From an uncultured bacterium (GTDB lineage Bacteria; Omnitrophota; Omnitrophia; Omnitrophales; Abzuiibacteriaceae), in contig CAYLXA010000010.1 in NCBI GenBank assembly GCA_964387845.1, positions 1-64,000 on the forward strand: DNA of 64,000 bases, written 5' to 3'. How positions within the stretch are numbered: the first letter of the stretch is position 1; each line of letters opens with the position of its first letter. The notes beneath the pieces are model-generated. The model did not search any database, was not told the DNA's origin, and was given only the letters and a program-made list of their open reading frames with translations. Below, in pieces: positions 42,801-45,800 of the stretch. A program made the position numbers and the translations under genes.

Positions 42801-45800
42801 ACATCATCATTACTTCCCCGATACTGGTACCTTTATTGAAATTTCCTTTTACATATTTTTCAAAGAAAGATTGTTTTAATATATTGAGATCCCCTTTACT
42901 TTTTTGCAAGATTCTTAATGCGGCATAACCTTCGGCAAGTAACGCATCGTTATCAATATATTTCAAACCAGATCTAAGTTTTTTTCCAAATTTATGCGTC
43001 AATTCGTGAGCAATTAGAAGACGGAGTCCCCACCCAGAGCCCATGCGTTTTAATTCGTTAGGATTAATTCGAATTCCATAATCAAATCCCGTGGCAAGCG
43101 TGTCGGGAAGCATTGCCACAGCAGTCGGTTTATTTTTAATCCAGATTGTTACGCCGACAGCAGCCAGACCGATAGCAGCAAAACCAAATAAAAAATCACG
43201 ACGTGTTAGTTTTTGTTTCGATTTAGTTTTATTTTTTCTTTCTAAGAAATATTTGAGGGAAAATATTGAGAAAATTCCGCTCAACAATGATAAGAAAATG
43301 GATAAGAATGTTAGGTATGCTTTTGGCTGCTCGATTGCAACCCCTATTGAGTCTGTTAAACGATTAATCAATTCTTCTTTTTGTTGCACAGATAAATCAA
43401 CGGCGTAACGATTTATAAAAAACTCAACTTCTTCCCGTACAATTTTTCTCTGTTCTTGGTCTAATTGAAAAACAAACGGTTTGTTCGATTCGCGCAACTC
43501 GGAACGGGATTTTCTCAAATCTATGTCAAGTAAATGCTGCAAAGCTAATCTCACCTTCTCTTCTTCCATGCCATCCAACTCTTGAAGTTGCCGGTCTGTA
43601 AATGCTTGGATCAAGCGTGCCATGGCTATGGACCGTGTAGAAAATTGATGCAGGTAATCATCAACGATCTGTTTTTGTTTTGCGCTTACTTGTTCCATCG
43701 AAATTTCGTTACGAGGAGGAAGGTTAAATGGATTTGGCGAACTATCATTTTGATTTAAATCATCGTAAGCTTGCCACAGAGCTCCGTTCTTACCGTAAAA
43801 ATATTTGCCCCACAATTGCATTCTGATATCTGAAACTTCCTTCCATTCTTTGTCGGCATCATTGATATCGGTTTCAAAAACGTATGGCGCTTTTTCCTCA
43901 TTAATTCCAATCGACGCCTCAAGCGGACCAAAAATAAGCGCCCCAGATTCAGAATCGACAGTGTTAAGGCCTTCTTGAACATAGCCATGCAGGGTATGAT
44001 TCATGAGCCAATTGAAATAATCATGCACAACTTGATTAAATCTCTTCGCACTCATTGATCTTCCATTCCAATGCTCTGCGAGAAGCCTGTCAAAAGCGCT
44101 TTTCTCTCTCGACGCGCCATTTTCTATAGGTTCTGAACGCAGCTCGGCCCTTGAGCCGAGCGGGCTCAAGGACGGCTTCGGCATCGCAGCTCGTTGCGGC
44201 AAAGTCCGAGCCGCCCTTTGTTGCAGCAGTTCCGACTTCGAATCGGCTGGAGTCGAAGTACGGACAGTCCTCAACTCCGCTCGAGCTGAGGACTCAGCGT
44301 GGACGGGGTTTAAATTAGGTGCTTTTTTTACAATTTTATTATCGCTATTTTTTATATTGACAAAGCCCTGATTGTTTGATATAAAAAAAGTCCCTTCGCG
44401 CGCAAACTTTAGGAAAGAAGAGAAAATACGATGACCAAAATTCCAAAGCCCGGCTCCGAATATTCTGAAGAGCGTGAATTCCGCGTCATTTTGGAGCATC
44501 TTGAAAGCCAGTTCCGTACTTTTGGTGAGGGGATGAACCGGATGGAACAAAAACTTCAAAAACTGGACGGCATTGATCGCAGACTGACTAGCGTAGAAGA
44601 AGATGTTGGATTGATTAAGGTCAATCTTAAACAAATTAATATTGATCTTAGAGAAGTCAGAGGTGATATCATGGTTCTGAAAACTGACGTTAGAGTCTTG
44701 AAAAGCGCTTTCAAACCATTCACCGCCCAAGTTTCCGATCACGAGCACCGGATTTCCGCTCTTGAGCGTTCCCGTTAAACGCAATTCCGATCGACTTAAA
44801 GGTAGCTGCAATACCTTCGTGATATGATTTTCAACCCATGGCCATAATTCTTTTGTGATAGATTTGAAATAATCGGAAGAAACTTGATACGGGCGCGCGC
44901 CAAACTGGATCTGATTGGCCAAATCAACCAAATCTATTAAGTGCCGCGCATCGGCTCCGATGAGATAGAAAAGAAATAAGTATTCCTGGGCAATTGTCAA
45001 ACCACCTTTATTTTGCCGACTAATGACCAGGAATGCGTGATATCTCAAAGATTCTTCCAAGATCACCTCTGGATTCCCTTTTGAATCAAACAAGCGAGCT
45101 TGTTTGATCCTTTGATTGAACAATGCCGTGTTGCGCTTTTGCTTTAATGCGTTTTCTATAAACAACGGGTGATACAAATCTTGATTGTATGCCCAGTGCA
45201 GAAAACGGAATTGGCTGAAACTCTCGTAAAATTCGGATGAAATATTTTCAGCAGCTAATCTTGAGATATCGGATAAATGTTTAACTGCAAAATTGGGAAT
45301 TCCTGATTTTTGAGGCCACCTTCTTTCTCCTAACGGAATTTTCTGAAATTCTTGCATAACACCTTGTAATTCTGAAACATTTTTCGGCATCCAATTTTTT
45401 GATTTTGACAAATAATGAACCCCATAAGCTTCCCTGACAATGACAGATGCCAAGTTTTCAACAAAATAATCCTCGGCATATGGAAATTGGTTAATCAATT
45501 TCACGGAATCAAAAAAAGATTTCACGTTGATTTCTAAATCGATTTTTCCGTTCTCATCAATTGTTTTTTGAAAATGAATCCCCAAATTAGCTGCTTCCTG
45601 CGGCAGCAGTTTAGCCTGTTTGACTAATTCGGAGTAATTCTTAAGAATGTCAGTATTCGGATATCCTTTGGCAATTAACCAGTCGATTGTTTTTTGAATA
45701 GCGTTTTGAACACTTGCTAAATCGGCACGCGAAAGTTGAATCTCGTCCATCAGGGATTTATTTTGTTTAAAAGATTTTCGAACGGCGTAAATCGTACCTG

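Follow-up and report, generated by a model that had tools for sequence, protein, structure and literature searches.

The 64,000-nt stretch analysed here (the window; positions 1 to 64,000 of contig CAYLXA010000010.1, from an uncultured bacterium of the phylum Omnitrophota) contains, at 44137-44298, four adjacent stem-loops and three [RK][SA]EL[RL] codon blocks, inside a giant modular open reading frame (ORF) on the minus strand. We favour, with a probability of roughly 0.55, the reading that this tract is a dimer of an in-frame palindromic element, comparable in kind to the repetitive extragenic palindromic sequences (REPs) and the Rickettsia palindromic elements (RPEs), lodged in a pseudo-intergenic linker of a polyprotein-like giant gene.

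The hairpin tract and its folding

The preliminary description of this DNA had claimed three stem-loops at 44140-44295, and inverted-repeat scans and folds recover all three there; a fourth, central stem had been missed. The host gene, the stems and the motif codons of the tract are as follows:

33892-46236, minus strand: giant modular ORF of 4,114 aa (12,345 nt, TTG start) with a signal-peptide-like N-terminus (ORF list and translation)
44149-44157 paired with 44163-44171: 9-bp perfect stem (hairpin gamma, inverted repeat I3, 100% complementary; inverted-repeat scan)
44142-44148 paired with 44155-44161: alternative 7-bp stem
44193-44204 paired with 44216-44227: fourth, central 12-bp stem (plus-strand minimum-free-energy fold)
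44235-44244 paired with 44250-44259: hairpin beta, 10-nt arms, 90% complementary
44266-44277 paired with 44283-44294: hairpin alpha, 12-nt arms, 92% complementary
44269-44283, minus strand: RAELR codons
44224-44238, minus strand: KSELL codons
44137-44151, minus strand: RAELR codons

The 4,114-aa gene is also called on an independent Logan contig. The arms of hairpin alpha enclose a further palindrome at 44275-44290, which contains GCTCGAGC. Minus-strand translation bears out the peptide units that had been read from the tract: the frame across it runs ...ESSARAELRTVRTSTPADSKSELLQQRAARTLPQRAAMPKPSLSPLGSRAELRSE..., and encodes SARAELRT...SKSELLQQ...GSRAELRS. The placement of the stem-loops in coding DNA beside a nested promoter likewise stands, in that the translation puts 44140-44295 inside the giant ORF and not in intergenic DNA, and an antisense gene, cassette B, described below, has its -35 hexamer 59 nt downstream of the end of the tract. 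The GC content of the tract is 0.62-0.63 vs 0.44 for the giant gene. No slippery heptamer of the kind that would signal a -1 frameshift is present 5-9 nt upstream of the structure; the only A-run near the tract (GTAAAAAAAGC, at about 44320-44330) precedes the first stem by approximately 28 nt on the mRNA strand, and the frame is open without a shift.

RNA folding of 44140-44295 gives -82.9 kcal/mol on the minus (mRNA) strand (z -5.5) and -72.8 kcal/mol on the plus strand (z -3.4), and on neither strand does any of 200 dinucleotide shuffles fold as low. With the encoded peptide held constant, the native codon-aligned 159 nt fold at -83.1 kcal/mol, against -61.0 +/- 4.7 when synonymous codons are permuted within the region (z -4.7, 0/1000 as low) and -56.4 +/- 5.5 under GC-matched synonymous sampling (z -4.85, 0/1000 as low); sampling of synonymous codons from the usage of the gene yields a z of -6.3 (0/3000 as low). 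Codon-shuffled controls consequently fold far less well than the native sequence (z -4.7 to -6.3), and the structure goes beyond what the peptide needs. The hairpins are real and are not a by-product of the peptide or the GC content, because synonymous and GC-matched controls alike fold worse. Of 3,193 sliding 156-nt windows in the 64 kb, the tract ranks first for structure on the minus strand (GC-corrected z -4.3), while on the plus strand it falls outside the top six; the top two 60-nt windows of the giant ORF also lie within it. Another GC-rich, low-energy window, 46731-46790, was set aside as ordinary membrane-protein coding sequence (z -0.57).

A double-hairpin element at module junctions

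The giant protein consists of about 17 units with [RK][SA]ELR between them. In a six-frame translation of the 64 kb, 15 strict copies of this junction motif are found over 12.3 kb, all in the giant ORF and in its frame and none elsewhere, along with a few degenerate copies; all 15 strict copies are positioned at the boundaries of unrelated modules. An exhaustive search with residues 52-1251 recovers, from metagenome-assembled genomes, related giant proteins of 2,000-7,000 aa (loci are given L numbers below), which are similarly modular and share the junction motif (RSE[LVAM]R, RAEVR), conserved in at least 10 of them.

Judged by its sequence, the tract is a tandem dimer of a double-hairpin element of about 75 nt, each copy of which ends in motif codons, and it accordingly contains three copies of the motif. 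The copies assigned in the window are:

44224-44298, minus strand: element copy 1, with hairpin alpha (44266-44294, holding the RAELR codons 44269-44283), hairpin beta (44235-44259) and, at its 3' end, the KSELL codons 44224-44238
44137-44223, minus strand: element copy 2, with a central, less defined stem (about 44172-44227, pairing differs by strand), hairpin gamma and the RAELR codons 44137-44151
34528-34602, minus strand: the other short spacer, in the top five of the 60-nt windows of the ORF for structure and the third-best match of the covariance model R1

The model R1 was built from L004 and L005 only and scored over the full window with filters off. Its best match is 44224-44298 (minus, 25.7 bits, E 0.002), followed by 44137-44182 (minus, 23.3 bits) and 34528-34602 (minus, 18 bits, E 0.08); these are the sole minus-strand matches with E < 1, and two weaker plus-strand matches are mirror images inside the tract.

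The spacers of L004 and L005 follow a single plan: motif codons, hairpin 1, a conserved ACTCCTC(A/C)G, hairpin 2 and then GCCGAGGTGCGG, with the 3' arm of hairpin 2 ending in the Arg codon of the next motif. On the minus strand of the window the 3' arm of hairpin gamma ends in an AGG Arg codon, and the RAELR codons then follow. L004 and L005 have 6-7 copies each, among which the flanks are conserved, whereas the stem sequences differ yet pair perfectly, and the encoded peptides differ too. Three L004 spacers of about 190 nt, with three motifs each and folding at about -97 kcal/mol, have the scale and layout of the window tract. All three clear hairpins of the window have homologues in L003 with compensatory pair changes, namely one in unit beta (T-A to G-C) and two in unit gamma (T-A to C-G, G-C to A-T). 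In a covariation set of 8 hairpin-plus-motif units from the window, L003 and L005, 95.8% of the cells are paired and 6 of the 9 pairs are altered on both sides; the covariation score is 0.60 vs 0.18 in shuffles (0/500), with slid controls reaching at most 0.19. The stems are maintained at the nucleic-acid level and not by the peptide, which varies freely among copies. Rfam yields no family match; all that it returns for the tract and L005 are chance matches below threshold.

Structure is concentrated in spacers delimited by two motifs. Of the top-1% structured windows, such spacers account for 22 of 35 in the L005 gene (where spacers are 4.5% of windows; p 1.7e-17), 9 of 17 in that of L003 (2.3% of windows; p 3.7e-6) and 5 of 22 in the giant gene of the window (1.7% of windows; p 0.03). 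Single junctions do not exceed the gene average for structure in the window, L003 or L005, and in L006 they exceed it only slightly (p 3e-4). The proposition that every junction has a hairpin was rejected: 13 of the 15 strict junctions in the window are without one, and junction sites fold on average like random ORF positions.

A census with R1 over 375 kb returns 32 distinct matches, 31 of them in open frames no shorter than 4.5 kb; such frames constitute 41% of the sequence searched. Thirty of the 32 are in sense orientation, with one inverted and one intergenic copy making up the remainder. The 64-kb window has three copies, all in the giant gene, and there are 5-8 per giant gene in L003, L004 and L005, including seven near-identical 75-nt copies in one gene of L004; the giant gene of L007 has no two-motif spacer. 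The three window copies and 30 others are stop-free in the host frame. The inverted copy (L018 5298-5375) occurs inside the conserved N-terminal domain of a giant protein, with 10-bp direct repeats at its flanks and with the host frame open. The intergenic copy (L003 8100-8176) is nested in a larger palindrome, and belongs to a 140-nt nested palindromic insert (L003 8085-8225) between an enolase-superfamily gene and DUF819; the insert is absent at the orthologous site in the window (about 47778-47781), where both genes overlap by 4 nt. Over 27 copies there is no strand asymmetry, sense folding at -43.0 vs antisense at -44.4 kcal/mol with 49 vs 42 G-U pairs, and the stems are almost pure Watson-Crick. 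The candidate of selection on the sense RNA only is unsupported across these 27 copies, though the window tract itself is asymmetric. A spacer palindrome of L033 (peptides VVLSASEES...ILRSAQDD) resembles what we take to be a type widespread in other bacteria.

Architecture of the giant genes

The amino acids of the junction motif are constant and its codons vary (Arg CGN/AGR, Leu CTN/TTR, Glu GAG/GAA and never Asp, with 5 GAA vs 0 GAY), indicating a constraint on the motif peptide. The motif codons are also skewed to CGC-[TG]CC-GAG-[CG]TG-CG[CG], more than the usage of the gene itself, which points to shared descent or an extra nucleic-acid constraint at many junctions. In L005, L007 and L004, the RSEVR/RAEVR lineages, the Glu-Val codons are nearly always GAG-GTG (30/32 for Glu; 17/22 and 13/14 for Val); the resulting GAGGUG presumably matches the Shine-Dalgarno core. 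The element spacers carry the complementary CUCCUC and CCUCG, so the hairpins sequester GAGGUG-type sequences. Three lineages, represented by P0005, P0010 and P0019, have other junction motifs in its stead (KPGSSDME, xGFG, SSSG/STSG), which suggests co-evolution with a lineage-specific reader, perhaps a protease. P0002, considered as a strain variant, turned out to be the same protein.

The units of the giant ORF include a S-adenosylmethionine (SAM) methyltransferase and an HD domain (Pfam), and one segment has beta-propeller-like sequence. Three units open with signals resembling those for twin-arginine translocation (TAT), and two of these carry HExxH. The exhaustive search also finds stand-alone homologues of one module, which start approximately 0-25 residues from the junction. 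The distinctive modules are:

44779-45906, minus strand: hallmark module, residues 111-486, a TAT-like signal and a conserved helical domain in which REAYG replaces HExxH
residues 916-1251 and 2235-2579, minus strand: HExxH peptidase-like modules (translation)

In the giant mRNA the hallmark module directly precedes cassette B; it is common to all the related giant proteins. Pfam has no family for it, for the N-terminal domain of the relatives or for the module after the tract. The AlphaFold model of its domain (44779-45780, minus; predicted local distance difference test, pLDDT, 86.7) displays weak fold similarity to zincin-type metallopeptidases, with REAYG/REAWG at the place of HExxH, and the domain may be a pseudo-peptidase. 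Internal TAT-like or signal-anchor segments on the minus strand at 45787-45858 (SRRTVIKYGLGL...), 43147-43224 (TRRDFLFGFAAIGLAA...) and 39391-39453 (SRRQIIIGAGTTALFAA...) sit 15-90 residues past a junction motif; such signals could work as N-terminal ones only if the modules become separate polypeptides.

L003 is a close relative of the window, with a LeuC that is 92% identical and a syntenic giant gene (L003 10001-19828). The two giant genes share only the hallmark (window residues 72-486) and the C-terminal module (3909-4114): the approximately 3,400 residues in between are replaced in L003, and homology breaks at or directly beside junction motifs. Elsewhere in the family, the giant gene L007 3001-17730 combines CsrA and sigma-70 region 4 modules, and L005 3001-23895 combines PP2C, 2-hydroxyacid dehydrogenase, helix-turn-helix (HTH) and HEAT-repeat modules, in one frame with exported modules in both cases.

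Two antisense cassettes are nested within the giant ORF of the window:

44357-44778, plus strand: cassette B, with TTGACA 44357-44362, a 17-nt spacer, TATAAA 44380-44385 preceded by TG, and an ORF at 44431-44778
35558-35863, plus strand: cassette A, with TTGACA 35558-35563, a 17-nt spacer, TATAAG 35581-35586, and an ORF of 78 aa at 35627-35863

Their promoters (conserved, sigma-70-type) and small coiled-coil-like proteins are paralogous. The ORF of cassette B encodes a coiled-coil-like protein of 115 aa and has motif codons on either side (44269-44283 and 44779-44793); cassette A has KSELR codons on either side (35473-35487 and 35872-35886), no hairpin tract and no unusual structure upstream. 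P0001, the sole cassette homologue from a word-indexed search, is on a 1.3-kb contig with the opposite frame fully open and RSEVR on both sides. In a metagenome scan we find 47 cassette loci, 18 antisense in an open frame of at least 2 kb and 14 closely flanked by junction motifs. Evidently, the giant frame is kept open across foreign, oppositely oriented genes. That the hairpin tract belongs to the antisense cassette fails as a rule, since the DNA before the promoter is unusually structured in only 3-4 of 19 nested cassettes and cassette A is without a tract; the functional link between the tract and cassette B is weak and not general. In L004, a giant gene of 4,108 aa (5621-17947, plus) is accompanied by antisense ORFs at 9208-9417, 11167-11382 and 11983-12198 (minus); these three cassettes encode paralogous small two-helix membrane proteins, and an 80-aa protein of L002 looks similar.

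The neighbours of the giant ORF are housekeeping genes: leuC, a glycosyltransferase, ORFs of rplM/rpsI size, AsmA, DUF819, an enolase-superfamily gene, asd, dapA/B/F, lysA, argH, ftsH and uvrA. The encoded LeuC shows 79-83% identity to proteins all attributed to Candidatus Omnitrophica/Omnitrophota, which places the window on the chromosome of an uncultivated member of that phylum. A separate ORF of 1,554 aa (7214-11878, minus) has matches to SdrD B-like, glucodextranase-B and CHU_C (type IX secretion) domains; it is without the junction motif and hence not of the giant-gene family.

Mechanistic interpretation and alternatives

On the favoured reading, each copy of the element comprises motif codons, hairpin 1, hairpin 2, the 3' arm of which ends in the Arg/Lys codon of the next motif, and the remaining motif codons [SA]-E-[LV]-R. 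The element would have spread by duplication, recombination or transposition among the junction sites of giant genes, where it may be tolerated or recruited, being stop-free with the junction motif at both ends. The motif is the predicted protease site, at which the peptides encoded by the element and by the antisense cassettes would be cut away: since the element is stop-free and has the motif at both ends, the junk peptide that it encodes would go when the giant protein is cut. The linker may then act as a pseudo-intergenic region inside the ORF, housing palindromic repeats, a promoter and an antisense gene, and the element could affect the giant mRNA by way of pausing, stability or processing.

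Several points weigh against this reading. The R1 matches in the window are weak (18-26 bits) and the calibration of their E-values is rough. The units of the covariation set were picked from sequences already known to fold, and template-switch "palindrome correction" could mimic compensatory change without selection. The hairpin units have no other copy in the 64 kb, and across the loci exact matches are found only in L003. No transposase, whether a REP-associated tyrosine transposase (RAYT) or one of the IS200/IS605 type, was seen among the genes of the window or the loci. A host-selected function and a niche-adapted selfish element would account equally well for the junction location and for the sense orientation of nearly all copies, and action at the RNA level and at the DNA level are inseparable in the absence of strand asymmetry. 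Finally, the junction motif is, for every member of the family, only a candidate site of cutting, inferred from sequence.

It is possible, if tentatively so, that the giant ORFs are true polyproteins, i.e. operons without stop codons, cut at a lineage-specific motif, with the double-hairpin element as a portable junction. Unrelated complete proteins, each with its own export signals, would then be freed by cutting at the motif; the stretch between motifs would act as intergenic space, in which antisense genes must keep the opposite frame open; and insertion of the element between genes, or recombination between its copies, would fuse and reshuffle genes in frame.

Less likely than the favoured reading is a host-selected RNA punctuation, whereby the hairpins act in the 12-kb mRNA at module boundaries, through ribosome pausing for the folding or cutting of the upstream module, through blocking of 3'-to-5' exonucleases, or as RNase sites that give segments their specific lifetimes, with the flanking motifs removing the linker peptide. 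The sense orientation of 30 of the 31 intragenic copies, the fixed geometry relative to the motif codons and the covariation of stems while peptides drift all agree with such a role, as does the better folding of the mRNA strand in the window (-82.9 vs -72.8 kcal/mol; rank 1 vs outside the top six). However, 13 of the 15 window junctions lack hairpins and single junctions are at most slightly more structured than average; some giant genes, such as that of L007, have no two-motif spacer; positions are not conserved between close relatives; over the 27 copies the stems are near-pure Watson-Crick without asymmetry between sense and antisense; and inverted and intergenic copies exist.

A DNA recombination site comparable to attC or to shufflons, at which a recombinase would use single-stranded hairpins to insert, delete or invert cassettes such as B, is unlikely. 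It would account for the sharing of hallmark and C-terminal modules alone between the window and L003, with breaks at or beside motifs, for the position of the tract next to an inverted, promoter-bearing cassette, and for the conservation of structure over varying sequence, as in attC sites, with pure Watson-Crick stems. Nevertheless, most cassette boundaries consist of the motif only (both ends of A and the far end of B), just 3-4 of the 19 nested cassettes have structured DNA alongside, and no integrase or recombinase gene is among the neighbours of the giant genes of the window, L003 or L005-L007. Further, there are two short hairpins in place of one long, bulged, attC-like hairpin, and inspection of the tract by eye, with no pattern search made, showed no GTTRRRY core. 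The earlier proposal of a recombination or cassette-insertion site keeps some plausibility: module exchange at motifs and insertable behaviour of the element (the intergenic and inverted copies and the presence/absence difference) speak for it, while the lack of hairpins at most junctions speaks against it.

We consider it very unlikely that the tract is an insulator or terminator for cassette B, which would block plus-strand transcription from reaching the promoter or shield the promoter from transcription of the giant gene. The tract does end 59 nt before the -35 hexamer, and a similar juxtaposition is seen in L012, L013, L033 and L004. Yet no T-run follows any of the stems, and a terminator scan of 33800-46400 is empty within 44137-44298 on both strands, so that the transcription terminator suggested in the preliminary description finds no support in the canonical, hairpin-plus-T-run sense. 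Moreover, no such tract accompanies cassette A, the upstream DNA reaches the 5% null level or lower in just 3 of 19 cassettes, and the element is mostly located between ordinary modules at a distance from cassettes. Local tandem duplication or slippage of an RSELR unit, or a GC-rich linker with meaningless hairpins, is hardly credible: three motif copies in 150 nt and a GC content of 0.62 might hint at it, but the three units do not repeat one another at the DNA level and differ in codons, the folding beats GC-matched and synonymous controls, distant lineages show the architecture again, with covariation, a model built without the window matches it, and the periodicity once attributed to slippage belongs to a gene-wide motif (15 strict copies) that is kept in distant giant genes, the copies in the tract being part of the element dimer.

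Comparison with known systems

The closest parallel to the element is offered by the RPEs, palindromic repeats inserted in frame in the coding genes of Rickettsia (PMC10969869). Both are short, in-frame, stop-free palindromes that add a peptide to the host protein and occur in several copies, that of L018 within a domain. The present element differs in its phylum (an Omnitrophota host), in its near-restriction to the junctions of one giant-gene family, in sense, and in carrying pentapeptide codons at both ends, whereas RPEs enter many unrelated housekeeping genes. With no Rfam match, it is by analogy an RPE counterpart and not a member of that group.

REPs, by definition extragenic, have a conserved 5' tetranucleotide and an association with RAYT transposases. 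They affect mRNA stability, and such an effect would suit a role here. With REPs and the bacterial interspersed mosaic elements (BIMEs) the present element shares short, imperfect palindromes of 20-35 nt, single or clustered, with compensatory stems, and presence or absence between relatives at an intergenic site; the tract has the stable, clustered stem-loops of such elements, with four stems in 160 nt. Unlike them, 31 of the 32 copies lie inside ORFs, and no RAYT is seen among the genes of the window or the loci.

With integron attC sites the tract has in common a hairpin site beside a gene cassette, the precedence of structure over sequence and an array of units that differs sharply between close relatives. 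On the other hand, the window provides no integrase, attI or cassette-promoter (Pc) context, most unit boundaries are free of hairpins, the units are fused in one frame, and two short hairpins stand against one long, bulged one.

Viral polyproteins and toxins of the multifunctional autoprocessing repeats-in-toxin (MARTX) type resemble the giant genes in that a short motif recurs exactly between unrelated, complete modules of a huge ORF; here the ORF also includes HExxH modules, its modules have stand-alone homologues and TAT-like signals come just after the motif. The differences are that cleavage is here a prediction from sequence, that the modules of the relatives include cytoplasmic housekeeping types, and that those systems have no counterpart of the linker hairpin elements and the antisense genes.

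Within the phylum, giant genes of the Archaeovorin and Dockerin types have been described, which exceed 30,000 aa, are repeat-rich and are suspected of being processed into several products, at cleavage points that the authors state to be unknown (bioRxiv 10.1101/2023.11.21.568195). The present family shares with them the phylum and the huge ORFs; those genes are 10-20x longer, against the 2,000-7,000 aa of the present family, which has another hallmark domain. Keyword searches of that study (bioRxiv 10.1101/2023.11.21.568195) brought up nothing on a junction motif, on palindromes lying in frame or on nested genes in antisense. Literature searches on the motif strings, and on polyproteins, palindromic repeats, gene fusion or nested genes in Omnitrophota, returned nothing relevant.

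Implications for the biology of the Omnitrophota

The Omnitrophota are uncultivated and probably host-dependent nanobacteria with, as described here, in-frame palindromes that are bound to one architecture, the giant modular genes of the phylum. Palindromic repeats inside coding DNA are in general known but rare. The host architecture, with its junction motif, swapped modules, antisense nested genes and pseudo-intergenic spacers, may itself be new. Several of its features are unusual for bacteria: the fusion in one frame of unrelated full-length proteins with their own signals, the motif-bounded swapping of modules between close relatives, and the presence, in about 20 independent loci, of antisense genes that have a promoter of their own and keep the frame opposite them open over several kb. 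The junction motif and the hairpin spacers furnish explicit candidate cleavage points for giant genes of the Omnitrophota, and offer a rule for annotation, whereby such ORFs are split into parts at the junction motif. If confirmed, these unusual features would amount to a new way of organising, expressing and reshuffling genes.

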